DNA of 64,000 nt from a virus. Position 1 is the first letter of the stretch, and every line of letters begins with the position of its first letter. The stretch lies in the UHGV virus genome UHGV-0141727; one strand, written 5' to 3'. Under the pieces are notes generated by a model, which saw only the letters and a list, made by a program, of their open reading frames with translations, searched no databases and was not told where the DNA came from. A program made the position numbers and the translations under genes. Positions 1 to 60,993 of the stretch are shown in pieces.

Positions 1-90
1 TAAATCCGCCTTAAGCGGTACGGTTTGAGAGGGTATGGAGTGTGTTAATTTCGCAGAATCACACCCCGAAGGTTCTTACTCAAAAGGGGA

Positions 91-588
91 TCATGGTTGA
101 ACCTGGATAACATCACCGTTCTTAACGGTAATGATTTTGTTCAGAAGAACGATTTGCGGGAAATTTCCAGCATACCAACTGAACGAACCAATCACTTCAT
201 ACTGGCCTGGTGGTACGTTTTCGAACTCAAATTTGCCTTGAGCATCTGTCAGGACAGTTCTGTCATATTCCGCAACCCTGCCGTCGATTATTTCTAAGGT
301 CTGAGTGTCGTAATCAATTTTGGGGGTATTTTTGATATATGAAGTATACGGACGCAGTATGATATTGGAGCCAGCACCAATCTTCACATCCCCTCCGCGA
401 GTTACTCCAAATAATTCCCCCTTAACCTTACCTGTGCCTTTTTTCGGCAATGCCTGATATTCCTCGACAGGGAATGCCGGGCGTTTAACAAACTGTTTTA
501 CTTGCTGAGGCTTGTTGTATGTCTGAACCGGAGCACATCCTGATAATGCAAATGCACAAACAATAGTCGCTAATATTGCTTTTTTCAT
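91..588 (-). CDS. lipoprotein with CarboxypepD_reg-like region
   Basis: ORF 91..624; internal ATG at 588 gives MKKAILATIVCAFALSGC signal peptide with lipobox; GQYEV-type motif. Confidence 0.5.
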   Translation of the reverse strand: MKKAILATIVCAFALSGCAPVQTYNKPQQVKQFVKRPAFPVEEYQALPKKGTGKVKGELFGVTRGGDVKIGAGSNIILRPYTSYIKNTPKIDYDTQTLEIIDGRVAEYDRTVLTDAQGKFEFENVPPGQYEVIGSFSWYAGNFPQIVLLNKIITVKNGDVIQVQP

Positions 589-781
589 AACTTTCTCTTT
601 TCTCAAATAAATAACGCAAACCAATAATAACTAGTGTTATCATTAACTTAGCGCAACTTAACTTTTCTGTTAGATAATACATTGAATAAAGTTAAAGATG
701 AATGCCGTTTAATAATGTTTGGTGTAATAGAAATCACATTCTCAACATAGTTATTGCTCTTTTTTCATTCGGAGCATGATT

Positions 782-1267
782 ATGATCAATAATGAACCTC
801 GCTGGCTTATTGAAGCCCGTAAAAATATTGGAGTCACCGAAATAAAAGGAGCGAAACACAATCCTGAGATCGTCCAGTTCTGGCGGGATATTAAGCGCAG
901 CGGAATTAAAGACGACGAAACGCCGTGGTGCGCTGCATTTGTTGGTGCAATGCTGGAACGTGTAGGTATCCGCTCAACAAGATTTGAGTCGGCAAAATCC
1001 TATCTGGATTGGGGCGAGAAATTAGATACACCGGCATACGGATGTATCGTTGTATTTACTCGCGCAGGCGGTGGGCATGTAGGCTTTGTTGTCGGACGCC
1101 GCGCCAATGGCGATCTGCTTGTCTTGGGTGGGAACCAGGGGGATGCTGTTAATATTCGCGCATTCCCAACATCAAGAGTGTCTGGCTATCGCTGGCCTGC
1201 TGGCGAACCACGCAATACAGCTCTGTTACCAGTCGGAGACGCAGCAACCTCAACTAATGAGGCATAA
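782..1267 (+). CDS. cell-wall peptidase (CHAP/NlpC-P60-like Cys-His), probable endolysin-type hydrolase
   Basis: ORF 776..1267; WCAAFVG Cys and GGHVGFVV His motifs; GGAG 7 nt upstream of ATG 782. Confidence 0.5.
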   Translation: MINNEPRWLIEARKNIGVTEIKGAKHNPEIVQFWRDIKRSGIKDDETPWCAAFVGAMLERVGIRSTRFESAKSYLDWGEKLDTPAYGCIVVFTRAGGGHVGFVVGRRANGDLLVLGGNQGDAVNIRAFPTSRVSGYRWPAGEPRNTALLPVGDAATSTNEA

Positions 1268-1290
1268 AAAAGCCCCGGCCAGGCCGGGGC
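1265..1290 (-). terminator. GC-rich hairpin GCCCCGG/CCGGGGC followed by T-run on minus strand, downstream of ant fragment
   Basis: inverted repeat 1272-1290 with A6 on plus (T6 on minus). Confidence 0.5.
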
Positions 1291-1298
1291 ATCACACT

Positions 1299-2203
1299 TC
1301 AAGTTACGATCCAATCATTACCGACTGCATCCGCCGTCGATAAATCGACTTCCCGGATCTGGTATCCATTAATACAAAACCATCCAGTGGTAGAGCTATT
1401 ATCAGGCCAGACCCATACACCAACACTCCATGCTTTACGGCGGCACACTTCAGCCTGTCCTTCCCTGATTTTTTTTACCGCCTGCATGATGTCCATCACT
1501 CGCCTCCCCAACCGATTACCTGGAATTGCCCCATCCTTGGGTGATACCAGCGTTTTCCTCGGTGTTCAGCCTCCGACATCATCAGGGTAAAGGCATTCAT
1601 GAAGGGAGATAAGGCCACAATAGTACGACGCGACAATACCCCCTCTGGCGTCAAAAACTCATGCGTATCTGTGGGGATCCGGTAAGCGTTGACCAAGTTA
1701 CGGCATTTGGCTTCAGTCAGGCCGCATTTCGCCGCTAACTGGCGATAGCCAATGTAACCTTCCGGCATGTTGCCCTTCTTGATCTGCTCGACGGTTTCAG
1801 CGACCTGGCTAACCTTTGACTCAACAGCATGAAGCCGCTTTTGCTGCTGAACTGCATTCGCAGCCATTGCAGCGATCATCTCTATTTCGGTCAACGGCTG
1901 GCGTACTTGTTCTTCCAGTTCGCGCCAGCGGTCCACCAGCCGGGCGGTAAATTCGGGAGAAAGCTGCGCAACGACAATGATACTGTCACGCTTGCCTTGC
2001 TCGCCTTCGAAGAAATAGGCTTTTGTGTATTTATTAGGGCTAAGTGATTGATTATTCTCAACTGTAGCCAATGGCGTATGTTGGATAACTCCTTTAGCAA
2101 CAAGTCTTTCGATGCTGCGTTTAACATCAGAGTGACGACTTCCCACCAGTTCCGCGATCTCAATGCTGGTCATTGATGGCTTTTCGAGAATGCAGATATC
2201 CAT
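1299..2203 (-). pseudogene. Rha-family antirepressor (Ant-like) disrupted by frameshift
   Basis: ORFs 1496..2203 (Rha N-terminal domain, IAELVGSRH motif) and 1299..1511 overlap in different frames; together they align to the intact paralog 51286..52227. Confidence 0.55.
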
Positions 2204-2427
2204 CAGTGAGCCTCCGCAATGCCGGGATTGGTAATATTGCGATACCAGGGATTAGTGTTTGGTTGTGGGGAAGTAGAGAAACGACCAGTGAGAACGCCAT
2301 ACTGATCAGGGATCAGAGAACGGGCTTCTTTTTCAGTTGCGGCAATTGCGAAGTGATCACAATGTTTTTGCAGGGAGTGGAAACGCCAGATGAATTCTGG
2401 ACGTGAGCAAGGATTGGCATTAACCAT
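2203..2427 (-). CDS. icd: Icd-like host cell division inhibitor
   Basis: C-terminal part of ORF 2203..2751; internal ATG at 2427 with GAGG upstream; EFIWRFHSLQKH motif shared with paralog 52227..52442; directly precedes ant-like gene. Confidence 0.55.
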   Translation of the reverse strand: MVNANPCSRPEFIWRFHSLQKHCDHFAIAATEKEARSLIPDQYGVLTGRFSTSPQPNTNPWYRNITNPGIAEAH

Positions 2428-2583
2428 AGTTACGGCCTCATGTACAGGTTTAACAACCTGCAACCCGCTGCTAAACGGGTGGCAGGACGTGACGGGGTTA
2501 GCAGACTGGCGTACATGAAACCAGCAGGCCGAAGCCTCCCCATCACGCCCCACCATAATTTGGGCGTAACGTGGTTTACGGAC

Positions 2584-2614
2584 ACAAAAATACCGCAATA
2601 TCGGATATCTGCGG
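2584..2614 (-). terminator. hairpin plus T-tract on minus strand about 160 nt upstream of icd start
   Basis: CCGCA...TGCGG stem followed by TATTTTTGTG on minus strand; analogous element in copy 2 at 52625-52651. Confidence 0.3.
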
Positions 2615-2754
2615 TTGTCCGCATGTACATTCAGGCTGCTAAACCCGGTCGCAGAATTTGCTACGACGGCATGAATATAAGCCTGAACATTAGAAAGATC
2701 AACAGAATTTTTATCAGATGCTGTTTTTTTGTGACGATGTAAATCATACATTCC

Positions 2755-2787
2755 TGATTAGAAACATCAATTTAATTTTCTAACACA
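2755..2787. promoter_or_regulatory. operator-like inverted repeat ATTAGAAA-N12-TTTCTAAC upstream of immunity-like module 1
   Basis: member of recurring TGTTAGAAAA/TTTTCTAACA motif family seen at 7 sites. Confidence 0.4.
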
Positions 2788-2842
2788 CAATTACGAGCGA
2801 TGATTTTTCCGCCGCACGGTTATTGTACAGTCAATCGCAACA

Positions 2843-3802
2843 TCATCCCCGAAAGCCCTCCGGAATTGACCAGTCTTCCCGGTCAAATTCAGACCGATAG
2901 CCACGCTGTTTCATCTGGTCAAATGCTTCATTGATGGTTGCACATCCCTGGGAACCAGAATAATCCATAGAGAAATCCAGGGCGCTGGATCGTTTGGGCT
3001 TATTCACCGTGGTAGCACTACGTATCCATGCAAATTTTTTTGCCAGTTTTTCAGCGGTACGATACAGAGCCTGCCGTTTTGCGTACCCCTCGTCTGAACG
3101 ACGCTTTGCAGCTCTCGCTTTTGCCGCCGCCAAACAGTGGTTGGTATGTTCTTCCCTGATTACTGTTTTTTTATCCAGCAAGCCATTATCCGCTTGAGAA
3201 CTATCTGCTGGTGAAGCCTTTGGCTGAACCGCGCATGATCTTTCTCTTCTTTTGGCTATAGAGTGACTCTTATTTTCTATTGGCTGTTCATTTTGAACAT
3301 GGGGGGACTTGTTCAATTTGAACAGGGGGTGCCCAGTTTCAAAAAAATAACGAACCTTTGAAATCAACTGCTTAACCAGTTTTGTGGCGTTGGCAAATTT
3401 GATGCCCTGCTTACTCCCTATCTCCATTGCTACATGAATGAAGTGGAGAAATTGTGTTGTAAACCGGTACACGTTACACACCTGAGCATTGTTATTCGCT
3501 ACCTGATGCTGCTTAACAAGCATTCCGCACTTCGTCGCTTCGGTAAATGCCCGGCGCACAGTAGAAATACTGCGTCCTGTAATCTCGGACATATCAGCAT
3601 ATGAGCGACGGATCATGTATTCATCGGTAGCTCCTGCCAGGTTGGCGAACTCGGCAATAATGGCGCTATGTGAAGGGGAAAGAAAACCGCTATGACGAGC
3701 AAAAAAACTCAACTGATGACCTTTGATTTTTTTGTGGTATTCAGTGTTGTTTTTATACTCAGAAGTGTTGAAAGTTACTGGAACTGAATTTAAAATACTC
3801 AT
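2843..3802 (-). CDS. winged-HTH DNA-binding protein (possible replication or regulatory protein)
   Basis: ORF; HTH-like segment SEITGRSISTVRRAFTEATKCGMLV; 9-bp inverted repeat GTATAAATC/GATTTATAC in its promoter region 3828-3856. Confidence 0.35.
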   Translation of the reverse strand: MSILNSVPVTFNTSEYKNNTEYHKKIKGHQLSFFARHSGFLSPSHSAIIAEFANLAGATDEYMIRRSYADMSEITGRSISTVRRAFTEATKCGMLVKQHQVANNNAQVCNVYRFTTQFLHFIHVAMEIGSKQGIKFANATKLVKQLISKVRYFFETGHPLFKLNKSPHVQNEQPIENKSHSIAKRRERSCAVQPKASPADSSQADNGLLDKKTVIREEHTNHCLAAAKARAAKRRSDEGYAKRQALYRTAEKLAKKFAWIRSATTVNKPKRSSALDFSMDYSGSQGCATINEAFDQMKQRGYRSEFDREDWSIPEGFRG

Positions 3803-3864
3803 CAGATAGTTCCGTGAAAAATCTATCTACCGTATAAATCTATGCCAGTGGATTTATACACCCA

Positions 3865-3896
3865 AAAGCCGCTACTCAGCGGCTTTTGCTTTTTTG
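3865..3896 (+). terminator. intrinsic terminator-like hairpin AAAGCCGCT/AGCGGCTTT with T-tract on plus strand
   Basis: stem-loop followed by TTGCTTTTTTGG; no annotated plus-strand gene upstream. Confidence 0.35.
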
Positions 3897-4000
3897 GCAG
3901 TCGCTACCGGAGCAGTGACCGCGATCCTACTCGATCACGTGCCGTCGGATCAACAGTGTATAAAAACACACTGTGTTAGAAAATTAAGCTAGCTTTTAGC

Positions 4001-4999
4001 TCACATCCTCTTAGACACAAAGATCAGCGGAGTCACCGTCTTGTTCTCTTTCACCGGTATTTCTTGTTGTTTATTGGCTGATATTGGCAGACCATAAGTG
4101 GCATTAGCCCCTAGGGATTCAAGCATCGCTGCGACAATGCGTGCATCATCCTCTGACTGCATACGGCAGAGCGCCCGGCGCTGTTCTGCGCTGATAAAAA
4201 CAGGCATTTCCTGGATAGCATCACGCAAAATACGGCGGCATTTCTTCGCGTTCTCCCCCTGGCTTTCCATCATCGCGGCCTGGTCGCGTAGTTTGTCGCG
4301 AAGCTGCATATTTTCCACTTCAAGATGTATCAGTTCCGATTCCAGAGCTTCACGCTGTGCTGATTCAATCATTGCTTGTTGACTTTGCATTTGTGCAAAG
4401 TGATGAACAATATCTGTAGCCTGATTGTCAGTGAAACCTTGATCCATCAGCGACGTGTGCATAACAGCTTCACGCTCTTCAACGGACTCCATCATCGGTA
4501 TCTGTTTATCGAGGCTGATATAGTTCGGCACGGTAACGTAATCAAATCCATGAAAGGAGTTTACTATTGACACGAAAGAATCAGGTCCAATAGTCGCCCA
4601 TGACCAACCGCCAGCATTTGAGTTGATCAATCCTTGAACAATATGCCCTGTATATGAATCAAGAATTTCTTGGGTGTGCGTAATGACACCATTATCGTCA
4701 ATAGAAATATCAACTGTTCTGTTAGATGGCACATTTTCCAGAAGAAGAGGCTTACCATCCATCATAACAACGCAAACCTCTGGCAAATCTAGTGATTTAG
4801 TTTTGTTGTAATACATCGAGCGGCGACCATGACCGTAATATCCAAATAGCTCACCAAGAGCCATGCGCTCTTTAACTAGCGGTGATGTTATGGTTTTTCG
4901 CACAGCCTCAATAATGTATTTTCGGTTGTTCTGCGGTGTATGTTTGCGGATTTTCTCTACCAGGGAGAAGCGATCCGTAACGGTATTCAGTGATTGCAT
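4001..4999 (-). CDS. head morphogenesis protein (prohead protease/scaffold-like by size and position)
   Basis: ORF 332 aa immediately downstream of portal-size gene; coiled-coil C-terminal half. Confidence 0.3.
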   Translation of the reverse strand: MQSLNTVTDRFSLVEKIRKHTPQNNRKYIIEAVRKTITSPLVKERMALGELFGYYGHGRRSMYYNKTKSLDLPEVCVVMMDGKPLLLENVPSNRTVDISIDDNGVITHTQEILDSYTGHIVQGLINSNAGGWSWATIGPDSFVSIVNSFHGFDYVTVPNYISLDKQIPMMESVEEREAVMHTSLMDQGFTDNQATDIVHHFAQMQSQQAMIESAQREALESELIHLEVENMQLRDKLRDQAAMMESQGENAKKCRRILRDAIQEMPVFISAEQRRALCRMQSEDDARIVAAMLESLGANATYGLPISANKQQEIPVKENKTVTPLIFVSKRM

Positions 5000-5012
5000 T
5001 ATTTCCCTCCGG

Positions 5013-6698
5013 TTAATTATTGCTCATCACAAATTTTGCAAAGTTGATTAATTGTTCTTGCGTCCAGTTTTCCGGATCGTCACCGGACGACAACGGCGCG
5101 GATTCGTACATACCATGCTCGTTGTTTTGCTCTGATTCATTCGCCTTAAACTCTTTGATCATTACGTTGAGAGTGTCATCGTCGATACGAAGCTGTTCGG
5201 TGAACAGATAGCGCATAAACGCGTCGCTACCCGCCAGTTTCGGGTTGTTCTGGATCTGGTCCATTATTTGCGAGATGACAGCTACGAAGTTGGCGCGCGC
5301 ATCCAGCTCTCGGTTTTCCTCTTCCTGGATAGCTGTGTTCATTGAGTTGAATTGCACGTCATAAGGACGGTTTTTTTCGGTGTAAACCTTCCCGTATTTA
5401 TAAGCGAGGTGAATGTCATGAAGCCGATAAATAGTCCGCTGGGCGGCCTGTCTGATCCAGTTCGCGCGTAATGCGGCCTGGATAGCTGTTTGCTGCCAAC
5501 CGCCTTCTCCAAGCCCCCCACTCATCTGATCAGCCCAGCCAAGCATTGTTGCGTCAATGCCGAGGCTTGCCGCGAGCTGTCGGAGATGAAACATAACGTC
5601 TTCGATACCACTGATATCTGCGGGTATAGATTGCGTATCAATGGTGATCCCGTTCTTCCCATCCCCCATGACAGGTATCAGATGGTTAAGTACAGATGGG
5701 AGAGCATTAGAATTAATTGACCGTTGCGCTACGAGGTCGCTATGGCGCTTCAGTGCCTGGCTGACCCCGCGCGTATAATTCGCCGCGTTTACCGGATCTA
5801 TCGTGTTCGTTGTGAGTGCAATCAGGCGATCAATTTTTGCAGCGTTGTTTCGCGTTGCTTTCAGCGCAGCAAGCGCGGCACATAAATTCAGGTAGGGTTC
5901 ATAACTGTATTCAAGAAACGACGTACCGTAGTTCTGTGTCTCCATTAACGGCTTGTCCTGCTGTTCACTAAGCAAGGAATAGCCTGTAGTGCCGTAAGTT
6001 ACTGGCATTACTTTATGCTGAGGCGTCCAGTACGGGTTTTTCATGGAAACCAGATTCCACGGCTCGGTTATAACTCTGCGCAAAGTATGCGTGTCCAGAA
6101 TGTAATCACCGCTGAATCCGACAAGTTGGCTACCGCGATAAAACTCCTGAACGAAATGAGGGAGCGTGTAATAGCTCGACTCAATTCCAGTTATCCCCTT
6201 CCCTTGCTCTGCATATGGACGGATATACGACACACCGAAAATAGCCATGATCATGGCCCACGATGGAAGGCCATCATTAATCATTGAGCTTAAATCAGCG
6301 GTCAATTCCTCACATCGACTTACAGCCTCCTTATCCGCCCCATTTTTCGGAGCGAGAATAAATGCGAGGCCTGTTTTTTTTGATGGAGCCAGAGAATGCG
6401 CAATGTGAATGTTTAATGCTGTGGAGATAGTCGGACTTTTCGCCATCGTCTCCAGTATGTTGTATTTTTGCAGGCGGTCACTCGGTAATTCTGCCGATAT
6501 AGATACTGTATCCGCCGCGCTTGTCATTCCATCGCTATTGCTCCCCAGGATGCCTGGACGCAAGGCGGACAGGCCAGAACGAGCAACGACGCTATGCCCG
6601 CTCGCAAATACGACCGGATCGGCAGGCGTAACATCACCACCGCTGAAGGCTTTCTTCAATGCCGACAGAAAGCCCTTGTTTTTGTCTTTCGTTGCCAT
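5013..6698 (-). CDS. portal-like virion protein
   Basis: ORF 561 aa, portal-sized, first gene of head operon; assignment by size and synteny only. Confidence 0.35.
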   Translation of the reverse strand: MATKDKNKGFLSALKKAFSGGDVTPADPVVFASGHSVVARSGLSALRPGILGSNSDGMTSAADTVSISAELPSDRLQKYNILETMAKSPTISTALNIHIAHSLAPSKKTGLAFILAPKNGADKEAVSRCEELTADLSSMINDGLPSWAMIMAIFGVSYIRPYAEQGKGITGIESSYYTLPHFVQEFYRGSQLVGFSGDYILDTHTLRRVITEPWNLVSMKNPYWTPQHKVMPVTYGTTGYSLLSEQQDKPLMETQNYGTSFLEYSYEPYLNLCAALAALKATRNNAAKIDRLIALTTNTIDPVNAANYTRGVSQALKRHSDLVAQRSINSNALPSVLNHLIPVMGDGKNGITIDTQSIPADISGIEDVMFHLRQLAASLGIDATMLGWADQMSGGLGEGGWQQTAIQAALRANWIRQAAQRTIYRLHDIHLAYKYGKVYTEKNRPYDVQFNSMNTAIQEEENRELDARANFVAVISQIMDQIQNNPKLAGSDAFMRYLFTEQLRIDDDTLNVMIKEFKANESEQNNEHGMYESAPLSSGDDPENWTQEQLINFAKFVMSNN

Positions 6699-6930
6699 GA
6701 TTCACCGCAAAAGGTTTCCGATTTCGTGGCAGCTTATCCAGTGTGTGATTTCATCAGTAATTTTTCGTTGTTTTCACTATATGCTGATGTTTTTTCATAT
6801 GCGGAAATGCTTTTCCAAAAACGCAACCGCCAAACAAAGAAGTTATGTTTATAAACATTTTTGTTGTGTTTTATATCTTTTGTGTTATTATTCTTGTCGC
6901 CCATGATGGATAAATTGCATAAGGAAACTT

Positions 6931-7113
6931 GTGAAGTATTCAGAGTTCAAACGCTGGTTAATCCAGCAAGGGGCAGAGTTCAGGAAAGCGCCAGGTGGCG
7001 GCAGTCATCAGAAAGTGAACCTGAACGGAAAGCGGTCGGTTTTCCCGGACCACGGTTCAAAGGAAATGCCTGAACCGCTACGCAAGAAAATAATGAAGGA
7101 CCTGGGGCTTTAA
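6931..7113 (+). CDS. hicA: HicA toxin (mRNA interferase)
   Basis: 60-aa ORF MKYSEFKRWL...GGGSHQK; GTG start with AAGGA RBS; followed by hicB. Confidence 0.8.
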   Translation: MKYSEFKRWLIQQGAEFRKAPGGGSHQKVNLNGKRSVFPDHGSKEMPEPLRKKIMKDLGL

Positions 7114-7143
7114 GCCCCAGCCTTTTTCACTAGGAGCTTCTCT

Positions 7144-7575
7144 ATGTTTAACTATCCGGTAAAACTGGAGCGCGACGACAATACCGGCGCGTATGTCGTA
7201 TCATGCCGCGACCTACCATTGTTTAATTCCGTGGGTGACTCAGTTGAAGAAGCGTTGCTTGAGGCTGGTTATGGATTGGTCGCAGCGGTTGCGATTGAGA
7301 TTGAAGAACGCCGACCTGTTCCCACTGGTAGCGAGCCAAAAGAAGGTGAGTACGTTGTCTCTTTGCCAGTGCTACCAGCAATGAAGGCTGCACTCCACAA
7401 CGCGATGATAGAAACCGGCACACGCAAAGCAGAGTTGGCGCGCAAACTCGGAAAAAATGGAACACAGATTGATCGGCTTCTCGACGTCGAACATTCATCG
7501 AAAGTTGAAACTGTCGAGTTGGCACTGCATCAACTGAATAAAAATATCGCCGTATCTGTCACACCAATGCGGTGA
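7144..7575 (+). CDS. hicB: HicB antitoxin with C-terminal DNA-binding region
   Basis: 143-aa ORF immediately downstream of hicA. Confidence 0.8.
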   Translation: MFNYPVKLERDDNTGAYVVSCRDLPLFNSVGDSVEEALLEAGYGLVAAVAIEIEERRPVPTGSEPKEGEYVVSLPVLPAMKAALHNAMIETGTRKAELARKLGKNGTQIDRLLDVEHSSKVETVELALHQLNKNIAVSVTPMR

Positions 7576-7687
7576 CTGCTCCCCGCCCTGGCTGGGCGAG
7601 GATTTACGGGGTATTTGTTAAAAACGCTCTATTCAAAGAAGAAATACCGAATCCCCCGGAGGTTATCCGGGGTGTCCGGTCGCCAGG

Positions 7688-9073
7688 TCAGGTTTCCAGC
7701 CCAAAATCGCTTTGTTCTGTTTTGGCTTCGAACATCGTGAAGTTAAGCCCTTTCCCCTCTCCATGTTCCAGTTCAATCTCATTAGAAACAGCGGTCAAAA
7801 TACTACGTAGATCGACATCTCCACCGCCGAACATATCGCCCAACGCCTGCTGTTTATGAATCAGTTCGTCGTTGATTTTTTGTGCCATTTTTTTGAATGC
7901 AGCCCCCATGCGCTTCGCGCTTCGATTATTTGCCACGATGAATAGCGCCAACGCCTCAGCTTCCGGCGTGCTATCACCGAAGAGTCCGCGCTGGGCTATC
8001 ACCTCTTCCACTGCCTGACCGTTGTCTTTGGCTTCACGAACAAGGTTAATCGCGTCCTGGAGTGCTGCTATAGCCTGTTTATCCAGACCGTTCACCTGCT
8101 CTATACCATCAACCAGACCAGTTACAGCATCATGATGTGCATCGCCAGAAATCGACTGCATTTGCGCAAAGTCACTGGCTGCTGTATTAAGCGCGGTCAG
8201 GATATTGCGCATTTCCGGATCCGGTTCTTCCGCCACAAGCCGAACAAGTCGCTCATCCTTATAGGCTTTGGCAAAAATCGCATTCTGAATGCGATCGATA
8301 AGCTGTTTCGTTGGACGTCCATCGGCTGTAAGCAAACCTGCCGTCGCGGTATCGCCTATTTCGTGCAAAAACGCACGAATAAACGCATCATTGGACCGCG
8401 CCAGTAGATTGCCATCATCTGAAGGATTAAATAGCGCCATGACGCTCTCAGTGAGAAATTGCGCATCCGCATACGCTTTCTCACTTGCAGCCATCTCTTG
8501 CAGATCGCTGATGTTTGAGTCGCGTGCAAATTGAGCACGATCAACGTCAGTGAGGCGCTCGCGAACCAGTACAGGCATCACCATTGCCCTGACGTCTTCG
8601 GGATTAAGGCCAAACTCTTTAGCGTGATCGATAAGATATTGTCGGTAATCTTCAGCCTGCCCTTGTTCATAAGCACGCCAGATTCCCATGCTTCGACCAT
8701 TACCAGACTCAACGACATTATCCGGACCAACAATCGGGGAACCATGACTACTCATACCCGAATCAGTGAGTTGTGCCGGGCGTAAATTGGCGGCGATACG
8801 GTTAACCTGGAGCTTACTTGACAGTCGGGTGCGATCGCGAGGCTGGAGTTCCTCCGGAAATGACGGATTTATACTTCCGTCCAGGTTGTTAGAAATGATG
8901 AGCTTTTTGGCATCAATAACCTTGAACGCTGTTTTAACTTCGTCGCCTTTGCTGGTGACGACATAGCTGCTACGCCCCAACTTCGTCTCTTGCTTTTCAA
9001 GAGATGACACCACAGCGATAACCCCCTCAATGTTCGCTGCGGCTAGAAGTGCTGATGTTACGTTTTGAGTCAC
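7688..9073 (-). CDS. hypothetical virion-associated protein (last gene of Dar-like cluster)
   Basis: ORF 461 aa; position after DarA/DdrA-like genes. Confidence 0.3.
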   Translation of the reverse strand: MTQNVTSALLAAANIEGVIAVVSSLEKQETKLGRSSYVVTSKGDEVKTAFKVIDAKKLIISNNLDGSINPSFPEELQPRDRTRLSSKLQVNRIAANLRPAQLTDSGMSSHGSPIVGPDNVVESGNGRSMGIWRAYEQGQAEDYRQYLIDHAKEFGLNPEDVRAMVMPVLVRERLTDVDRAQFARDSNISDLQEMAASEKAYADAQFLTESVMALFNPSDDGNLLARSNDAFIRAFLHEIGDTATAGLLTADGRPTKQLIDRIQNAIFAKAYKDERLVRLVAEEPDPEMRNILTALNTAASDFAQMQSISGDAHHDAVTGLVDGIEQVNGLDKQAIAALQDAINLVREAKDNGQAVEEVIAQRGLFGDSTPEAEALALFIVANNRSAKRMGAAFKKMAQKINDELIHKQQALGDMFGGGDVDLRSILTAVSNEIELEHGEGKGLNFTMFEAKTEQSDFGLET

Positions 9074-9142
9074 AATTAACCACCTTTCTGTAAAAAAGGC
9101 AGTGTAAAAAGTGTGTTATTTCGCTGACTATTTTAAGAAGAA

Positions 9143-23200: not shown

Positions 23201-24134
23201 CTGAACCGGGCGCGTTATCTGGAGTCTTCCTTTCATTGTCAGGTGCCGGGTAAGTAATGGCGGGGGCTTTTGCGACCACCGGTGCGCCAGCCGCCTTGTC
23301 GTTGCCATTATCTATCCATTCTTTCAATGATTTAGCCTTACCAGTAATCTCGCGGCTGATATCAAATACGCCCCGTGCTGCCATCCATAGTGGACCACCA
23401 GCCCCTACCCCGGCAGCATCGGTTACAGCTCCATCGTCGGCTTTCCCTGAACCATCAACCCCCATAATGGAACCGAGTTTTCGCAGGAACCCAACCTGTA
23501 GTTTTGCCTGTGCGCGTAGCTCATTCTGGCGTGCGAGATCCTCGTTTTTTTTCTGAGAGGCAAATCGTCCGTTGCTATCCCGTAACGGTGCACCAGAGGT
23601 GCTCTGGCTTTCTCTAACTGGTTGTTCTTGCCTTGCAGGCTGAATGTCAGGAGTGAGCAACTGAATGCGCTCTGGCGATGACTTCGTGGCTTTGCCTTCA
23701 GCCAGTGGTGCTGTTTTTGATTCCGAATGAGCGGTGCGGTGATCTGCTGCTGCTTTTTGCGGATTATCTATCTCGCTAGTGTTGTTTATACGTAATCTCT
23801 GTTTCCTGGTAGGGAGCCGGTCTTTATACGGCCCCTGTGTGAAACTGTTGCGTTGCGCCCCTGCTTTCCCTGTTCGGGCCAAGCGACGACTTACGCGTCC
23901 TTGTGGTGCGTCGCTGGTATCAGGATTGCGTCCGTAAGACTCAAGTGCTTTTTTTATTTCTGAAAGCGCAGCTAGCTCTTTCGCGTTTGCCGTTTGTATT
24001 GCGTCGATTATCGCTATTCGGTCTTTTTTATCGTTCAAAATAACCTCACTTACATCGGCGGTGATCACCCTGTTTTTTTGGCGTGGGCTTTGTATTTCTC
24101 TTCCAGTGCTTTTTCCATATGGAGTGCCCGCCAC
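20271..24134 (-). CDS. tape-measure/Sit-like tail protein
   Basis: 1287-aa ORF with Gly/Ser/Lys-rich low-complexity segments, upstream of baseplate genes. Confidence 0.55.
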   Translation of the reverse strand: MAGTPYGKSTGREIQSPRQKNRVITADVSEVILNDKKDRIAIIDAIQTANAKELAALSEIKKALESYGRNPDTSDAPQGRVSRRLARTGKAGAQRNSFTQGPYKDRLPTRKQRLRINNTSEIDNPQKAAADHRTAHSESKTAPLAEGKATKSSPERIQLLTPDIQPARQEQPVRESQSTSGAPLRDSNGRFASQKKNEDLARQNELRAQAKLQVGFLRKLGSIMGVDGSGKADDGAVTDAAGVGAGGPLWMAARGVFDISREITGKAKSLKEWIDNGNDKAAGAPVVAKAPAITYPAPDNERKTPDNAPGSAKAFTEAVKEKSVRAIEEQTKVLQRNDSQIIDELETVSEEIRKLRKSQESGLKLSDLLGGGRLRSKISPTRGRSSARGGNTGRTGDSKENKGKKGKNTSKPTETGRSQEGKEGKKNQPGKNNSAGEEKNRTKNAGGNEGSTSPKSSGDKSSVKTRAGKVTEESVAKTAAGGAAGKDAGKAATSAGESLTRKEAGKVAVATGENIAKKEAGKVALKAAGGVAARAGFRAIPVIGQVAMVGYDAVDGYSDTEAQRATYNLKEGQDVTTQQKSAYAAANVLDMGGLVTGAANLIGEGMSALGFEGVGQKLQSLDTSNIARGINSSIDASKNAFSSLKESFSSSSEGTAQVKKAVEDGTKQTVAAINDLARQLQGGRRGEDGVGEHGYKSPDEFKAPEKNTITADLNIGGSNAKNRNYRNNNLGNLVFANQEGAVLEAPNAKGEQRFARFNTPEEGIRALANQVSSYYNGTSAAAGYQKLQTVSSIISKWAPPTENNTNQYIENVSKYLGVSPNDKIDVSNPEVMTHLVRAIATKEGGNPAVNNNFIKTALGSFNAKTGRWEGQFNDETLEHINKIQKEKGGPLIARNSQYSVGSKVKYANGSSSAIPASSVAQAVMPTPTDVVQHAQAAKKPKAAQQENAQAISHAKASGNSSAAAGLTDRLMSADGVGGVIAGIVGGDPNMGLNLGPVSSPEEMSSLAAKAKQLDKFLVEKISRATGKNFSFQKAEQIADITTAIQQKRNVNRDTETIDLLPESPATISGKRATSTPAGVQIYDNGYKVVEGEDRGFFGSLFDSTVSGLKQVGSAVLPAVGDNLSRLVGGIDSTGMLNDFVLQSSGQNTDVARAISPLTRSVGGWLNGGIQKTADTIRDTTGAINQSLFASGVAAKEPFLAMPPQLPTVTDLARSGIRQMLTTDTANNDPAMLKALENVYSVLKEILGVSKDNRKGDQDKVVNTSQPQPRQRASTTINDPSLDKLLED

Positions 24135-24188
24135 TGCGGTAATTGTTCAACGTCACTAACTGGCTGGTAGCCGTATAACGTCAGGTTA

Positions 24189-24869
24189 TTAATAATGGTT
24201 AGCCATCCATTCAGATCTAATTGATGGGATAAACTCTCTATTGAGAAATGGGGCGTACAGCGTGGTAGTCACGTCTGCACCCTCCTTAGCGTTTTTGCAG
24301 CGTTGTGGCGGTAGGATCAGGCGGCTTGTGCCTCGTTCAATAGCCATTTTTAAGCCGTGGCGAAGGTCTTTCTGCATGAGCTGAATGCGAGCTACCAGAG
24401 GGGTAAACTCGGTTTCCAGTGCCATGTTTTCAATGATATCGAATCGTCTGTTTGCAGCTTGTGTGAAGTCTTCTGGATCGTCGTTCAGAGATGTACACAA
24501 GGCCAACTCAGCTATGCGGAGACGAGCAACCTCAGCACTGTACTCTGGAGTTTTCATATCAGGCAAAGTGGCGCGCATACGTTCAAGCAATTCAGCGCCT
24601 TTCCCTGTTAATGGTTTAAGCGTCCACTCGGTTGGTACTCCGTTTATAGGGACCATAGTTTTAATAAACGGCGGGACAGTCAGGATTTCTACCGTTTCGG
24701 CAAGGTCTGAAAGGTTAATATCTGCGTGATGAACGTTTCCACAGTGACCACACTCGTATGAGTAAGTCATTACGGCATCTGGTCTGGAATTGACAAAGAT
24801 CCACCAAAGCGCGGTTCTGCGATCCTGAACTGTCCAGTTTGAGCTGTCGTTAATTTCGCCGTCTTGCAT
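24189..24869 (-). CDS. hypothetical protein upstream of tape-measure gene (start uncertain)
   Basis: ORF 24189..25136 extends into the origin region; first ATG at 24869. Confidence 0.3.
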   Translation of the reverse strand: MQDGEINDSSNWTVQDRRTALWWIFVNSRPDAVMTYSYECGHCGNVHHADINLSDLAETVEILTVPPFIKTMVPINGVPTEWTLKPLTGKGAELLERMRATLPDMKTPEYSAEVARLRIAELALCTSLNDDPEDFTQAANRRFDIIENMALETEFTPLVARIQLMQKDLRHGLKMAIERGTSRLILPPQRCKNAKEGADVTTTLYAPFLNREFIPSIRSEWMANHY

Positions 24870-25081
24870 GGCGTTGAGGTATTCTGTTGTGGTTGCCTCG
24901 TCTTCTGCCGGATTGATGTCTGAATATTTCAGGGCATCTTTCACAGTAGGTGCATGAAACTGAATTTCTATTTCAGGCTGTGAAGGCAATGGGAATTTGG
25001 GAATGTTCAAGGATTCCTCCAGAAAAGTCGGTACTCGTTTGGCTGGAGGATAGGGAGTGTGTGATTTTGACTTTAACCTAT

Positions 25082-25190
25082 TTATCCACAGGGTAGATCC
25101 AATAAATAGATCCCAAAGAGAACCAGTAAGATCCAAAGAAGATCCCGGATCGCTGCGAGCCGCGCCATCACTGGCCTAAATGGAGATCAA
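25082..25190. promoter_or_regulatory. origin-proximal region: DnaA box TTATCCACA plus cluster of six GATC sites
   Basis: perfect DnaA box at 25082-25090; GATC sites within ~100 bp upstream of iterons. Confidence 0.55.
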
Positions 25191-25295
25191 CATTGACTAT
25201 GTGCGATTTAATGTTGACTATGTGCGATTTTATGTTGACTGTACGCGATTTAATGTTGACTATATGCGATATAAACATTGACTGTATGCGATAAT
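25191..25295. repeat. five direct ~19-bp iterons at ~21-bp spacing upstream of repA
   Basis: units (C/A)(A/T)TTGACT(A/G)T(G/A)(T/C)GCGAT repeated 5 times. Confidence 0.75.
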
Positions 25296-25372
25296 TCTCT
25301 CAGCCCTCAGACGGCTGTGGATAAGTATCTTTCATTTGGCTATAAAGCCCCGTCAATCAAGGAAATAACAGG

Positions 25373-26257
25373 ATGGTAGATGACAAAAAAGGCTTTCTGA
25401 ACGTTGAGGAAATATCAGGGAATACCGGAGAAATCCACAGCTTAAAGCCTAACAATAATAGCACTATTCAGCCGATAGCTTTGTTGCGGCTTGGGGTGTT
25501 TGTTCCCACATTGAAATCTACCAGTGTTGCTTTACGTCGCAAGAACGCCGGTTTAACTAACTCCACTGATGCGACAGAAGAACTGTCCAGCCTGAAGATT
25601 GTAGAGCAGGAAGGGTATCAGGGTATTGAGATTCATGGGCCACGTCTGGATATGGATACTGATTTTAAGGTGTGGATAGGCATTACATCTGCATTGTTTG
25701 ACTATAAACCAGATAATGATGGTGTGATCACCCTGACATTCTCTGAATTTGTGGATCGTTGCGGTTATCCAAGGAAGCGGCTGTCCAAGGCTTTTCGCAA
25801 GAGCATTGGCGACTCTCTAACGCGTATTCAGCAGACGTTGCTGAAGTTCAACTTGCCCACCAGCAAAGAACATGTTCGTTATATCCAGATGAATTTATTG
25901 GCATTTAGTGAACTTGATACTGAAAATGACATTATAAGAATCCAACCGCAGAAGCAGTTGTCTGAGTTGTATTACGTTGACTATAAGCGAATATTGAAGC
26001 TCAAAATGCTCGATAAACTTGGCAGGAAAGAGACAGCCAAGGTGCTTTATACGTTTTTCGAAGCGTTACCTTCAAACCCTGCGCCAGTGAGTATTGAGCG
26101 CCTTCGCGCCAGATTGAACCTCAAATCATCGGTTAGCGTTCAGAACAGTGTGATTCGTAAAGCCATGAAAGACTTGGAAGCTGTTGAATATCTTAAATTT
26201 TCAGAGATAAAGAATGGTCGGAAAATAGGTTTCCAGATCCATAAACGAAATCCATAA
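25373..26257 (+). CDS. repA: replication initiator RepA (P1 RepA-like)
   Basis: 294-aa ORF recalled to resemble P1 RepA in conserved blocks (VQPxAL(L/M)RLGVFVP, GPRLDMDTDFK, YTFxExLP) (recalled from memory, not searched); flanked by iterons. Confidence 0.8.
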   Translation: MVDDKKGFLNVEEISGNTGEIHSLKPNNNSTIQPIALLRLGVFVPTLKSTSVALRRKNAGLTNSTDATEELSSLKIVEQEGYQGIEIHGPRLDMDTDFKVWIGITSALFDYKPDNDGVITLTFSEFVDRCGYPRKRLSKAFRKSIGDSLTRIQQTLLKFNLPTSKEHVRYIQMNLLAFSELDTENDIIRIQPQKQLSELYYVDYKRILKLKMLDKLGRKETAKVLYTFFEALPSNPAPVSIERLRARLNLKSSVSVQNSVIRKAMKDLEAVEYLKFSEIKNGRKIGFQIHKRNP

Positions 26258-26487
26258 CATTGACTGTGTGCGATTCCAAGCGTTGACTATACGCGACAAA
26301 CATTGACGCTGGCGGATTTAGTTATTAACTTTTTCACATGATCAATGGATAAACCAGCTATTTCATTGAGTATTTGTCGCTTATAGTCAATCTTTCCTCA
26401 TTTCTTGTCGTGTGTAGTCAATGTTTTGTGATCGGGATCGAGTACAGTCAACATTAGTTGTAAGCCATTTCGCCTATAGTCAACATT
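26258..26487. repeat. downstream iteron array (three direct, four inverted copies)
   Basis: TTGACT/AGTCAA cores of the same iteron family in both orientations. Confidence 0.6.
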
Positions 26488-26504
26488 TCTCCATCAGCAG
26501 TCTT

Positions 26505-26795
26505 AAGGGCAATTTCTACACCTCTCTGTAGGTGTAGGATTTGCCCTTAAAGATGGGAGATTGAGGGCAATTCTTACACCATTAGTGAGTTGGTTGGAGC
26601 TTTAACGGCTAACATCATTTGTAATTTATTGATTAATAAGTAATGTGTAAAAATCACCCTCAGATAGCATCGTATGTTATAGCTATTTTTATAGCACACC
26701 TGTTAAGTGTTTTTTGAATGTAACTCATTGATTTTGTTGTGATGTGTAAAAAATGCCATCATTGACGTAAACAGCAGGTGTAGAAATTGCCCTCA
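26505..26795. repeat. four copies of a 16-bp motif GGGCAA(T/A)T(T/C)(C/T)TACACC in alternating orientation around an AT-rich spacer
   Basis: copies at 26505-26522, 26531-26548 (inverted), 26563-26580, 26778-26795 (inverted). Confidence 0.4.
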
Positions 26796-26837
26796 AGTTT
26801 GCCCCTTCCCCACCTTCTCGCACTTTAATATTGCATT

Positions 26838-27575
26838 TCAAAACTTGATCACGTTGCTGGCGGCGCTTTTAAGTGCGCTTGTTGCTAAACCAGCAGCTCC
26901 ATTGACTAATGCGGACAGGCCGGAACCAGCAGATGTGTATCGCTGGAACGTGATCGGATAGGACAAGAATTCGGACACCTGATCACGTGAGCGGCTGATC
27001 TCTCCTATCTGAGTAGGAAATACACGCATTTCCTCTTCCAGCTCTTTCCCGCCTTCCTGTGTAACGCGGTATAGCCTGATATTCATGAGATAATCTGGCG
27101 GCAGGTTTAGCGTACCATCGCTATTGGTTACACGGGCGCGGCGCTCCTTGAACCAATTCATTATTTTGCCGTCTTCTGTGTCTCTGACCGTCATTGTTAC
27201 CGGTCCGGCGGTTACGTGCGTTGGCTTATTGAACTCGACGCTACCAATGATTTTGCTTTCTGTTTCAATATTCCCGCTACTGTAAGTTATGTCCTTAACG
27301 AACATATCAAAGCCGCTTAATCCGTCTACATCTACCGTCCACTGCCAGCCCTGGGCATAGCGGATACGCATAGCCGTAGCAACTACGTTCTTTCCGTAAG
27401 CGATGTCATTGCCATAGCTCCCACTAACGCCACTGCCAGACACCGCTCTATCCAGAATGTCGCTGATAAGGTTGCTGGTGAATGATTTCGCGCTAAACGA
27501 TACCGCACTGGCTAGCGTTTGCGTTGCAGCACTAAAAATACTCACGTAGCCCTCCGTGTTAAAAAATGGTAGCAC
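26838..27575 (-). CDS. hypothetical virion protein
   Basis: ORF 245 aa in tail/head gene block. Confidence 0.3.
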   Translation of the reverse strand: MLPFFNTEGYVSIFSAATQTLASAVSFSAKSFTSNLISDILDRAVSGSGVSGSYGNDIAYGKNVVATAMRIRYAQGWQWTVDVDGLSGFDMFVKDITYSSGNIETESKIIGSVEFNKPTHVTAGPVTMTVRDTEDGKIMNWFKERRARVTNSDGTLNLPPDYLMNIRLYRVTQEGGKELEEEMRVFPTQIGEISRSRDQVSEFLSYPITFQRYTSAGSGLSALVNGAAGLATSALKSAASNVIKF

Positions 27576-28110
27576 CAGGGATAATGGCCCGGTTGGCTGC
27601 CATTTTTTCTTCTATCTCCTGAACACGCGCGTAGAGCGTCGCCTCATCAGGAAGATCGGAGTAATCAAACTTGCCATCAATTGACGCCCTTCGCTGGCGG
27701 GCAACGTTGCGGACATTGATAAGTGCTTCAAGATATTCCTCAAGCATTCCGATAATCGCAGGTGGCACTTGCCACTCATCCAGGTTGCGATCGCGGAGAT
27801 TTACAAGGTATTGCATCTTGAAAGGCCAGCGTTCAGAACCGGTAAGCTCAAGTTCGACAAAACCGGCAATCTCGTCGGCGTAAACCAGAAGTCCGTTGTG
27901 GTCAGTGACGTGGACCAGAGACAGATAATCATCCGGAACAGGGATCGCCGTACCGTCTGCTTTCTCCAGCTTTAATGCCTTCACTACTCCCGCTCTGTCC
28001 TGGTAAGTAGTCAATGCTTTGATCAGGAATGCTTTCAGTGTCTCCTCTTCCCGTACAAGAAGAGGATTGAATCGCGCTTTAACGCTTTCTAATAGTTCAG
28101 AAGGTGTCAT
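27559..28110 (-). CDS. hypothetical virion protein
   Basis: ORF 183 aa. Confidence 0.3.
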   Translation of the reverse strand: MTPSELLESVKARFNPLLVREEETLKAFLIKALTTYQDRAGVVKALKLEKADGTAIPVPDDYLSLVHVTDHNGLLVYADEIAGFVELELTGSERWPFKMQYLVNLRDRNLDEWQVPPAIIGMLEEYLEALINVRNVARQRRASIDGKFDYSDLPDEATLYARVQEIEEKMAANRAIIPGATIF

Positions 28111-55750: not shown

Positions 55751-56379
55751 GCAATATCGACACACTGGCGCTGCGTGAGGCGGCAGAACGTGCAATTCCG
55801 GCAATGGAACGCCTGTTAATGTTGCCAGTTGATGATGATCTGATAAGTGAACAGGAACTTAAAGATTACGGTGTGGATATTGATGCGCTCAACGCCTTCA
55901 AATTTCTGGCCGGACCAGAAACCGTGCTGGCACTACTGGATGAACGGGAAAGAAACCAGCAATACATCAAACGCCGTGACCAGGAGAACGAGGATATTGC
56001 GCTAACGGTAGGGAAGCTGCGTGTTGAGCTTGAGGAAGCAAAATCAAAACTCAACGAGCAACGCGAGTATTACGAAGGTGTTATCTCGGATGGGAGTAAG
56101 CGTATTGCAGAACTGGAAGCACGGGAAATAAAACCAGCCAAAGGTGAAGTTCTTGTCGTTGTTTCTGGTTTTACTGGTTGCGGAAAAAGCGCCATTGCCG
56201 GGGAAATAGAAATCGCGATGAAGGCTATTGGTGTACCGGTTCAGTGGACTAATGGCGATGCGGAAAAGCGCATGACAGGAGCTGACTGGCTGACAGCAAT
56301 TGAGATGTACAAACCAACTGTGCGCATCGTGGAAGTTAATGTGCCACGCGCCCCTGGCATTCGCATCAAAGGAGAGTGA
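55747..56379 (+). CDS. Ea22-like protein with Walker A-like C-terminal region
   Basis: N-terminal [10 protein letters not shown]...KDYGVDID module shared with 60980..61732; GFTGCGKS motif. Confidence 0.5.
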
Positions 56380-56380
56380 G

Positions 56381-56704
56381 ATGACCACATCGCATTCTGC
56401 AATCACCCAGGAAAAAGTATTTCGCTTGCTCGAACGTCTGGAGGCGCTCGCCACGGAGGAGGATATATCCCCGGAGATGCTGGTCGAGTGCAGCCGTGTG
56501 ATATTGCGTCGCAAGAACGACATCGCGCGGCTGACATCCGGCGCACCATCCGTATCAGCCAGTCCAACGCTTTATTGCAGCTTCTGCAACAAATCCCAGC
56601 ACACCGTTAAAAAGTTAATTGCCGGTGACAACGTTTTCATCTGCAACGAGTGCGTGAAAGATTGCAACAACATTATCCAGGAAGAGCAAAGGGAATCAGC
56701 ATGA
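56381..56704 (+). CDS. protein with ClpX-type C4 zinc-finger domain
   Basis: ORF 56300..56704; ATG 56381 with GGAG RBS; [36 protein letters not shown] matches the ClpX N-terminal zinc-binding domain as recalled from memory. Confidence 0.55.
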
Positions 56705-57411
56705 AATTTTCCAAATTTTCTGAGTTGGTGAATCGTATTTTGTCCAACAACCACAGCCATCGTCGCGATATGGATGTAACAATCGTTATTCATTCGCCTG
56801 GCAGCATTGGTTCAACACCTTCAGTTGAGGTTCAGTCAATTCACGCTGGTTTTGATTGGGATTCCGGGAAAGTGCTGATTTTCCCAGCACAGCCACTGAC
56901 CGCGCTAACACCAGAACAGATTACTGATATCACGGATAGTGTGCGCAAAGGTCAGTCTTGGCACGCATATCAGGAATACAAGAAGCATAAAGAGCAGTTG
57001 GAAAAATTGTCGATTGAACTTGATGCTGCAAGACGGCGCATTACAGAACTGGAGAGCGAACGCGCGGTGCTGGCGGCGGAGAATGCGGATCTGAAGTCTG
57101 TGCACCCTCAACCATTCGGAGCTGAGATGATGAAGGCTCTTGATGCGTATGAGAAGCATCAGGATGAAGTGCCAGAGACTGGAATGCTCAATGCATTTTT
57201 CATCTTGCGCGACAGTATCCGTGTTGACACCCCAGCCACCGATGCTTTCCTGGCTGAAGTACGTGCGCAGGGCGTGGATATGGCTCGTAACGCGATGATT
57301 GATTTTGTCGATGGTGAAGTTGGTCCAAACAAGAATGTTCCGGGGCTGATTAGAGGCGCAGAGATATGCGTAAGTATTGCTGAACAGCTTCGCAAAGGAG
57401 GCAGCCAGTGA
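56701..57411 (+). CDS. Ea22-like protein
   Basis: ORF 56650..57411; ATG 56701; [12 protein letters not shown] motif. Confidence 0.5.
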
Positions 57412-57683
57412 ATATCGACACGACAATAACGATCGATACGCTCCTAAATTCCGGTCTGGCACTTCTCGGTTGGCTTTACATCATGTCCCGTACATGGCGA
57501 TGGCTGGGTTCCATTTTCCTGAAACAGTGGAAAAAACGGCGCAAACATGAACTACGCCAGAAGGCATTAGAAGCGTTCTATGACGCATTTGAACTTGGCA
57601 GCATTGAACCAGGCACAACAGCGAGGATAGCGACAAAAGGCGACCTGATGATAGTGATGTTCAGACAGGAGAAAACAAAATGA
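57408..57683 (+). CDS. small membrane protein
   Basis: GTG start with AAAGGAGG RBS; one TM segment. Confidence 0.35.
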   Translation: MNIDTTITIDTLLNSGLALLGWLYIMSRTWRWLGSIFLKQWKKRRKHELRQKALEAFYDAFELGSIEPGTTARIATKGDLMIVMFRQEKTK

Positions 57684-57904
57684 CAGAACAGACGATGACA
57701 AATCGCGAACTTGTTGATGCCGCGATTGAACTTGCTGGCGATTTTTATTCCATGATGGGTTACGAACATCGTCCTGGTTTTAAGTATTGGGAGTCACCGC
57801 ATCCGCAAGAACAACAGGTGTTTGAAATGGCCTGCCGTGCTTTTGAGGTTATTCGCGGTTCTGATGTGATGGAGGCCGTTGCCGACTTGGAGGATGAAGA
57901 GTGA
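57680..57904 (+). CDS. hypothetical protein
   Basis: ORF 74 aa. Confidence 0.3.
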   Translation: MTEQTMTNRELVDAAIELAGDFYSMMGYEHRPGFKYWESPHPQEQQVFEMACRAFEVIRGSDVMEAVADLEDEE

Positions 57905-58212
57905 GCATCATTGTAGAAATGCCGGTAGAACGTGATGAATATGGCTGCTGGACACATCCGGAGTATGAAAAGTTTTGCGCAGGTCGTGAATATATATCCA
58001 CTGAGGAATTTGACGCCTGGATGAAGGAAAATAATCTTCAGTGGACTATTCGCAGTATGGATGAAGATGATTTTAATCTGGACGCAGATGGCCCCGATAT
58101 TGCCGCCTGGGAACCAGAGCGACCAGAGGGCGAAGGCTGGTTTGTTGGCTCTATTCATGACACTGAAGATGGTCCGGTTTGTATCTGGCTGCGGGAGAAG
58201 GTTGCCGCATGA
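57901..58212 (+). CDS. hypothetical acidic protein
   Basis: ORF 103 aa. Confidence 0.3.
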
Positions 58213-58895: not shown

Positions 58896-58925
58896 TCCTG
58901 AACACATCGTTTATGCACTCAAAAT

Positions 58926-58960
58926 GATGTTAGAATATTGATTTTAATTTTCTAACAGAT
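58926..58960. promoter_or_regulatory. operator-like inverted repeat TGTTAGAA-N14-TTCTAACA upstream of 59000 gene
   Basis: member of recurring motif family. Confidence 0.4.
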
Positions 58961-58999
58961 TATTTTACCGCTCGGAACAAAACAGAGTCGGTATACATT

Positions 59000-59995: not shown

Positions 59996-60011
59996 TGGAG
60001 TGGATCAAAAA

Positions 60012-60734: not shown

Positions 60735-60993
60735 GTCAAAATGCCAAATTAATGGCAACAAGATAGAACCGTGCGCGGCGTTGGCACAATCCCTGGAGCA
60801 TGACGCTGAATACACGACGCGAAAAGGTCTGCTGAAATACAAAATCTATAACCATGCATTAATTCATTCACAAGACCTGATCATGCTGCGGTCAGGCGAG
60901 TTTTCTAAATCGCCTATTCGAGTTTCATTTTGCCCATTCTGTGGTGAAAGTCTGAAAACGTGGGAAGCGGAGGCAGCCAGTGAGCAAAATTAA
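60727..60993 (+). CDS. small Cys-containing protein
   Basis: ORF 88 aa; CPFCGE motif. Confidence 0.25.
   Translation: MSESKCQINGNKIEPCAALAQSLEHDAEYTTRKGLLKYKIYNHALIHSQDLIMLRSGEFSKSPIRVSFCPFCGESLKTWEAEAASEQN

Follow-up and report, generated by a model that had tools for sequence, protein, structure and literature searches.

A short motif is repeated in alternating orientation immediately downstream of the replicon of UHGV-0141727, next to repeats that belong to that replicon, and the question raised by the locus is what this additional set of repeats is and whether it still has a function. The first-pass annotation of the window (the whole stretch of 64,000 nucleotides that was analysed) had left the motif unexplained, listing as candidates a protein-binding array, a second origin, a packaging-related site and a miniature inverted-repeat remnant. 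In this study, we report that the repeats are very probably the orphaned, incC-like iteron array of a displaced RepE-like replicon of the type found in phage D6.

The element and the position of the array

The window comes from a P1-related, D6-like phage-plasmid. Its nearest complete relative is the 94-kb Escherichia coli plasmid NZ_CP085065.1 (CP085065), which is 98% identical to the window and largely collinear with it, and which carries pacA, genes for portal, sheath and tube, a sit-like transglycosylase gene, repL, phd/doc, a tyrosine recombinase gene and partition genes of both the ParM and the ParA type. The region at about 6750-9140 of the window, compared with 56257-61249 of CP085065, is rearranged or divergent, with BLAST blocks out of order and one of them at 83% identity; on the CP085065 side it carries a TnpB-family gene, HicA and an HTH regulator. 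Over window positions 1-6753, identity to CP085065 is only 91%. The array lies between two convergent genes, repA (294 aa; 25373-26257, + strand) and a tail-tube ORF (26838-27575, - strand) annotated as 708 bp in relatives.

The motif and the six-site array

The four copies of the motif described previously were confirmed at their coordinates. With up to 3 mismatches allowed, GAGGGCAATTTCTACACC matched at 26505-26522 (+), 26531-26548 (-), 26563-26580 (+) and 26777-26794 (-), with no fifth match within the 64-kb window; 0.03 matches were expected by chance, and four copies were reached in none of 100 shuffles. The 'TGTGTAAAAA' repeats reported between the last two copies are also present, but they do not constitute a separate feature: a looser pattern and a weight matrix identified them as two further, degenerate copies of the same motif, giving six sites in total. 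The matrix, whose maximum is 30.7 bits, was derived solely from the five origin iterons of phage D6. It scored the four window copies at 23.9-30.4 bits and the two weak ones at 15.3-15.6 bits, with nothing above 15.0 bits elsewhere in the 64 kb. Among the functions originally considered, these scores support a protein-binding array, made up of predicted iterons for a RepE-like initiator.

With strands given for the D6 20-mer, the array consists of iteron 1 (GGTGTAGAAATTGCCCTTAA on the - strand, 26503-26522, 23.9 bits), its palindrome partner iteron 2 (GGTGTAGGATTTGCCCTTAA, 26531-26550, +, 25.5 bits), iteron 3 (GGTGTAAGAATTGCCCTCAA on the - strand, 26561-26580, 30.4 bits), the weak iterons 4 (TGTGTAAAAATCACCCTCAG, 26644-26663, +, 15.6 bits, column conservation 0.90) and 5 (TGTGTAAAAAATGCCATCAT, 26743-26762, +, 15.3 bits, column conservation 0.93), and iteron 6 (GGTGTAGAAATTGCCCTCAA, 26777-26796, +, 27.6 bits). 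It spans 294 bp in the orientation pattern - + - + + +. Weak iteron 4 shows a TCACCC variant that is shared by the inverted iteron to the left of the D6 origin and by iteron 2 of F ori2. The IHF core consensus WATCAANNNNTTR has five exact matches in the 64 kb, two of which fall inside the ~200-bp stretch of the array, both on the - strand: site 1 (AATCAATAAATTA = WATCAANNNNTTR, 26622-26634), which is kept in relatives, and site 2 (AATCAATGAGTTA, 26721-26733). One of them precedes each weak iteron, within a 43-nt direct repeat that comprises the IHF-like site and the weak iteron (26620-26662 and 26719-26761, 99-bp spacing).

The first two copies form a palindrome, as had been noted, although with arms of 21 nt instead of 18 bp (26503-26523 and 26530-26550, 90% complementary, separated by a 6-nt spacer). 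Folded as single-stranded DNA, it reaches -16.3 kcal/mol (z = -6.0). Terminal inverted repeats of 27 nt are located at 26497-26523 and 26776-26802. The description of the sequence between copies 3 and 4 as an AT-rich, ORF-free stretch of ~200 bp largely holds: it measures 196 bp, its G+C content is 31-34% compared with ~50% in the flanking tail gene, and its sole ORF is a trivial one of 41 aa. Terminator prediction called no site at 26503-26550 on the two strands, and the hairpin is not followed by a T-run on either of them. In an Rfam scan of 24000-28000, the hairpin drew no more than chance matches below threshold (28 bits vs. a gathering score of 84 bits), and a sigma-70 promoter scan did not yield more sites than shuffled sequence, with one weak - strand site within the array. 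The 21-6-21 palindrome was also considered as a lox/FRT-like core or a bidirectional terminator; both were rejected on account of the direct repeats in the D6 origin and of the lack of a called terminator.

The D6-type replicon and its cognate arrays

Searching for the motif across related genomes, as the first-pass annotation had suggested, identified its source. A sensitive search with 26490-26840 matched 110 plasmid records and phage D6. For the 98 distinct records that were listed, this match starts within the 3'-terminal part of an initiator gene annotated as 'RepB family', apart from CP085065 (an orphan, see below), one record without annotation and three rows in which no annotated feature underlies the match. 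In phage D6 (NC_050154) and plasmid pEC361_3, the 20-mer GGTGTAAGATTTGCCCTCAA is present in five direct copies, spaced 22-32 bp apart and running up to the start of rep, in an origin that also holds one inverted iteron, a DnaA-box-like sequence (ATATCCACA) and AT-rich short repeats with GATC. Judged by its sequence, the window motif is the 20-mer iteron of this D6-type origin. The D6 Rep has 251 aa and the Pfam domains Rep3_N (2.9e-29) and Rep3_C (9e-16), and it aligns with RepE of the F plasmid (PDB 1REP), also of 251 aa, at E = 1.4e-73 and ~45% identity; these values mark it as a clear homologue of F RepE. The repB gene of the D6-like plasmid pYU39_89 has been described as 'associated with iteron sequences', with nothing further said (PMC6799933).

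The same - + - + + + array, beginning 3 nt before the end of rep, was found in D6, in four divergent plasmids and in 17 of the 17 IMG/VR contigs with a D6-type Rep; it is immediately downstream of rep in all 22 cognate loci examined, and both IHF-consensus sites are found in 16 of those 17 contigs. The TAA stop codon of the D6-type rep (26504-26506 in the window) falls within iteron 1, and it does so too in D6, pEC361_3 and others. In three divergent cognate lineages, pairwise identity was 91% in the iteron columns and 83% in the IHF-like sites, compared with 45% in the spacers (Mann-Whitney, p = 2e-24 and 7e-7, respectively). Therefore, the array appears to be functional and constrained in its native setting, the weak sites included.

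A further iteron-like site, GATGTATAATTTGCCCTCTG, occurs inside the D6-type rep, ~225 nt into the gene (3483-3502 in the phage D6 locus L006), and scores 17.7-21.3 bits in 22 of 22 rep genes. It may reflect codon conservation (..EMYNLPSAE..) or be an internal, putative Rep-binding site.

Replacement of the replicon

Alignment and BLAST showed that the homology of the window to D6-type plasmids ends at 25067 and is resumed at 26493, which places the junctions of the swap at 25067/25068 (left) and 26492/26493 (right). The 1,425-bp interval between them (25068-26492, + strand) is an incoming, complete RepFIB-like replicon unrelated to that of D6. It contains the perfect DnaA box TTATCCACA of a RepFIB-like origin (25083-25091), five direct iterons of the ATGTTGACTATGTGCGATTT type (about 25189-25292), repA, and downstream iterons of the replicon's own type (26256-26487). 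The resident repA shows ~78% nucleotide identity to 'RepFIB replication protein A' genes of P1-like phage-plasmids. Similarity between its product and the D6 Rep was not detectable, and no relative of the resident RepA was found in the PDB. The ATGTTGACTATGTGCGATTT iterons have nothing in common with the array motif, and the original remark that the motif is unlike the iterons of the resident replicon was correct.

At the right junction, a scar of the displaced D6-type rep was recognized by alignment with D6, pEC361_3 and others. This scar, ATCAGCAGTCTTAA (26493-26506, + strand; last codons ..Q Q S stop), corresponds to the last four codons of the gene and directly abuts iteron 1. Because it survives, the D6-type arrangement can be taken as the ancestral one. 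With the D6 Rep as query, tblastn gave no hit to the window or to the complete 94-kb CP085065 (E > 0.2), the latter standing in for the ~30 kb of the window's element that lie beyond the window. Likewise, the weight matrix detected no origin-type iteron cluster elsewhere in the window. Given that neither the window nor CP085065 encodes a D6-type Rep, the array is an orphan. Two downstream iteron sets are thus found back to back (26256-26487 and 26503-26796), and a cognate Rep is present only for the first.

Some other traits of the junction region should be mentioned. In the resident origin, the DnaA box is followed by short GATC-containing repeats (AGATCC four times, then GGATCG; 25083-25190), which recall the Dam-methylated repeats of P1 oriR. 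The left junction is not the same in all carriers. In the window (25068-25082) and CP085065, 16 nt (TTTTGACTTTAACCTA) stand ahead of the shared DnaA box, and in plasmid CP042620 (L003, about 3935-3965) ~30 nt of different sequence precede it; this could reflect repeated acquisition of the RepFIB-like cassette by D6-like backbones, or remodelling of the junction. Just outside the cassette, at 25048-25067 and upstream of a pmgB-like gene on the - strand, a 20-mer (GGATAGGGAGTGTGTGATTT) is almost invariant among the window, D6, pEC361_3, CP085065 and CP042620 while its flanks diverge, the only differences being in its last three bases in CP042620. It could be a late promoter or an operator of the pmgB-sit operon.

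Distribution and decay of orphan arrays

Carriers of the orphan arrangement are six complete E. coli genomes, plasmid CP042620 and two IMG/VR contigs (L012 and L013). The E. coli carriers were obtained from humans, a wild bird and a monkey. A scan of genome contigs with the junction pattern returned no match, and the same pattern applied to IMG/VR retrieved L012 and L013.

The array of the window is full length, with no deletion and no substitution at a core position, and it is 100% identical to that of pEC361_3, which does encode its Rep. This identity implies that the swap, or a later recombination that imported the array, is recent. The window array itself shows no decay, which is compatible with neutrality as well as with retention in the window lineage. 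The other orphan arrays have lost sites. In the CP085065 group, 99 bp are deleted between the 43-nt repeats, with the loss of one weak iteron and one IHF site, and iteron 2 has changed from TTTGCCC to TTGGCCC; L012 has the same 99-bp deletion and no core substitution. The 43-nt direct repeat is the substrate of this deletion in both the CP085065 lineage and L012. CP042620 lacks 58 bp between iterons 1 and 3, by which the palindrome is lost and iterons 1 and 3 are fused, and has no core substitution; L013 lacks the same 58 bp and has iteron 4 changed from TCACCC to TCAACC. The core positions substituted in the CP085065 and L013 arrays are otherwise invariant.

Altogether, site-losing deletions affect 4 of 5 distinct orphan arrays versus 0 of 16 distinct cognate arrays (Fisher, p ~8e-4, hand calculation), it being noted that the orphan deletions are not phylogenetically independent and amount to two or three events in all. 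This pattern favours relaxed constraint, i.e., a relic. As for substitutions, the comparison of orphan and cognate arrays showed few changes only, and the 58-bp deletion of CP042620 produces its apparent differences in columns 26503-26552, which are an artefact of alignment.

Comparison with F, P1 and RepFIB replicons

By position and sequence, the array is the apparent counterpart of incC of mini-F. In the RepFIA replicon of the F plasmid (ori2-repE-incC), incC begins at the repE stop codon and is inverted with respect to the ori2 iterons; the D6-type array, too, begins at the stop codon of rep, and its first iteron runs against those of the origin. The layout upstream of rep is also common to both, with one or more DnaA boxes, an AT-rich stretch and direct iterons; as read by us, the F origin presents DnaA boxes, the AT-rich stretch and four direct iterons (TGTGACAAATTGCCCTCAG) ahead of repE. 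The F and D6-type iterons share one half (ATTGCCCTCA / ATCACCCTCA), while the other, 5' half is unlike (GGTGTAG/A in the D6 type, TGTGAC in F). No F iteron matched the D6 matrix at 8 bits or more; therefore, the two specificities are probably distinct. The use of the window sites by the RepE of a co-resident IncFIA plasmid was considered as well, and was dropped for the same lack of matches at 8 bits or more.

There are also differences in architecture. F incC consists of five iterons in a single orientation, whereas the D6-type array has six sites in mixed orientations and widely spaced, with a palindromic first pair, two weak but conserved sites and two IHF-consensus sites in addition. In its native context, the D6-type array could therefore do more than incC, or something other than it. 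Furthermore, F incC has rep and origin in cis, whereas the array of the window has neither its cognate rep nor its origin; it is an orphan member of the family by descent, without a working control circuit.

The P1 plasmid prophage offers a second parallel. Its incA locus, which exerts negative copy-number control, determines incompatibility and has repeats in both orientations, likewise consists of clustered iterons, bound by the initiator and situated downstream of rep. P1 RepA and its 19-bp iterons are, however, unrelated in sequence to those of the D6 type, and the P1 replicon adjoins parAB, whereas that of D6 is located between the pmgB-like and tail-tube genes. In RepFIB replicons such as the resident one, repA is also flanked by iterons on both sides, with repeat sequences and an initiator that differ from those of the D6 type.

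For F, the function of such a locus has been described. The five iterons of incC downstream of repE act as a negative regulator of copy number and as an incompatibility factor (PMC13028717). In the same work, an oriS plasmid was not established beside a multicopy plasmid carrying repE and incC and was maintained once incC had been exchanged for a terminator, and its authors attributed the exclusion to an excess of incC dosage (PMC13028717). Iteron titration and handcuffing in general have been reviewed (PMC6312765, PMC6090056).

Proposed origin of the array and alternatives

The identity of the motif with the origin iterons, the homology of the cognate Rep to RepE, the swap junctions, the absence of the cognate rep, the conservation of cognate arrays and the deletions in orphan ones were observed directly; binding by Rep and a role in copy control in D6 are inferred from F and P1. 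On this basis we propose the following course. In native D6, the 251-aa RepE-like initiator would bind the five direct origin iterons and open the adjacent AT-rich DNA, and the same Rep would also bind the six-site array that starts at the stop codon of rep. If it acts as F incC and P1 incA do, the array would hold copy number down by titrating Rep and by being paired with the origin through Rep (handcuffing or looping), probably helped by the two conserved IHF-type bends. In the window, a 1.4-kb RepFIB-like cassette precisely replaced the D6-type origin and rep, leaving the control array behind. For the resident replicon, the orphan array is probably inert; having no role there, it would be free to decay. 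Its predicted high-affinity sites being intact, it would still bind D6-type Rep in trans and depress the replication of an incoming D6-type plasmid, and it may in this manner impose a one-way incompatibility on D6-type plasmids.

It could be argued that this last property is the reason for the presence of the array, i.e., that it is actively retained as a decoy or incompatibility weapon by which the Rep of D6-type elements that arrive or co-reside is titrated or handcuffed, its carrier being immune by virtue of the RepFIB-like replicon. The four strong sites of the window have stayed intact and do not differ from those of a functional relative, the exclusion of the oriS plasmid by multicopy repE and incC and its rescue with a terminator in place of incC provide a precedent in F (PMC13028717), and at least 6 complete E. 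coli genomes and 2 IMG/VR contigs still carry the orphan arrangement. Nevertheless, we consider active retention unlikely, since 4 of 5 distinct orphan arrays are short of one or two iterons and two have core substitutions, compared with 0 of 16 cognate arrays, which fits relaxed selection; moreover, a few iterons at unit copy number would add little to the effect of any second D6-type plasmid, and shared immunity and partition functions would already cause interference between such elements.

The suggestion of a second origin is right in so far as the array belongs to a second, former replicon, although it corresponds to the downstream control array of that replicon, similar to F incC, and the canonical D6-type origin, situated upstream of rep, is deleted here together with rep. 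That the array might nonetheless work as an origin or as some other cis site, driven by IHF and DnaA or by the resident RepFIB-like RepA, could be thought from its AT-rich core (31-34% GC), its two conserved IHF-consensus sites and its repeated sites, a layout that recalls iteron origins. We regard this as very improbable: no DnaA box was seen on reading 26490-26840 by eye, the resident ATGTTGACTATGTGCGATTT iterons are unlike the motif and the two Reps are unrelated in sequence, and sister orphan lineages tolerate partial deletions of the array. Still less credit is given to a mobile or recombinational nature, either as a MITE remnant with the 27-nt inverted repeats as its ends or as a lox/dif-like core formed by the 21-6-21 palindrome. 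Inverted repeats are certainly present, and the arm-spacer-arm geometry resembles that of tyrosine-recombinase cores, but neither version explains why the same 20-mer stands as five direct repeats in the D6 origin. In addition, each genome has the array once, at a constant locus and on D6-like plasmids only, and 5,426 E. coli genomes gave 0 chromosomal places; the window contains no other copy, and no recombinase or transposase gene adjoins the array, the Cre-type recombinase gene of the complete relative CP085065 being ~45 kb away. Nothing supported a packaging-related site either, pacA being tens of kb away in D6-like elements. The orphaned incC-like array accordingly remains our preferred reading.

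What had been an unexplained motif thus records a change of replicon in a phage-plasmid that can be mapped to the base at either junction: a RepFIB-like cassette took the place of an origin and initiator of RepFIA-like (RepE) type, while the control locus of the former replicon stayed behind. For replicon typing and for copy-control experiments in D6, it is useful that the D6-type replicon now emerges as an ori/rep/inc unit similar to mini-F, in which the iteron has 20 bp and the downstream array, with its six sites and associated IHF sites, is unusual. Orphan iteron arrays are, in turn, potential hidden determinants of incompatibility, invisible to replicon typing based on rep genes, and could bias which phage-plasmids co-reside. 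Were active retention true, replicon replacement would have created a one-sided incompatibility weapon. It must be noted that mosaic replicons of phage-plasmids and control iterons located downstream are both well known already, and neither practical point is surprising to plasmid biologists; what is new is a cleanly resolved orphan incC-like array derived from a RepFIA-like to RepFIB-like swap, together with the description of the D6-type array architecture.

Finally, one record differed from the rest in the search with the array. NZ_MK356558.1 (Salmonella sp., 168,834 bp; hit H178) is a plasmid in which two places, neither with an annotated gene beneath it, are 81% identical to the first three iterons, and it may represent another context for D6-type iterons, e.g., a cointegrate or another orphan.
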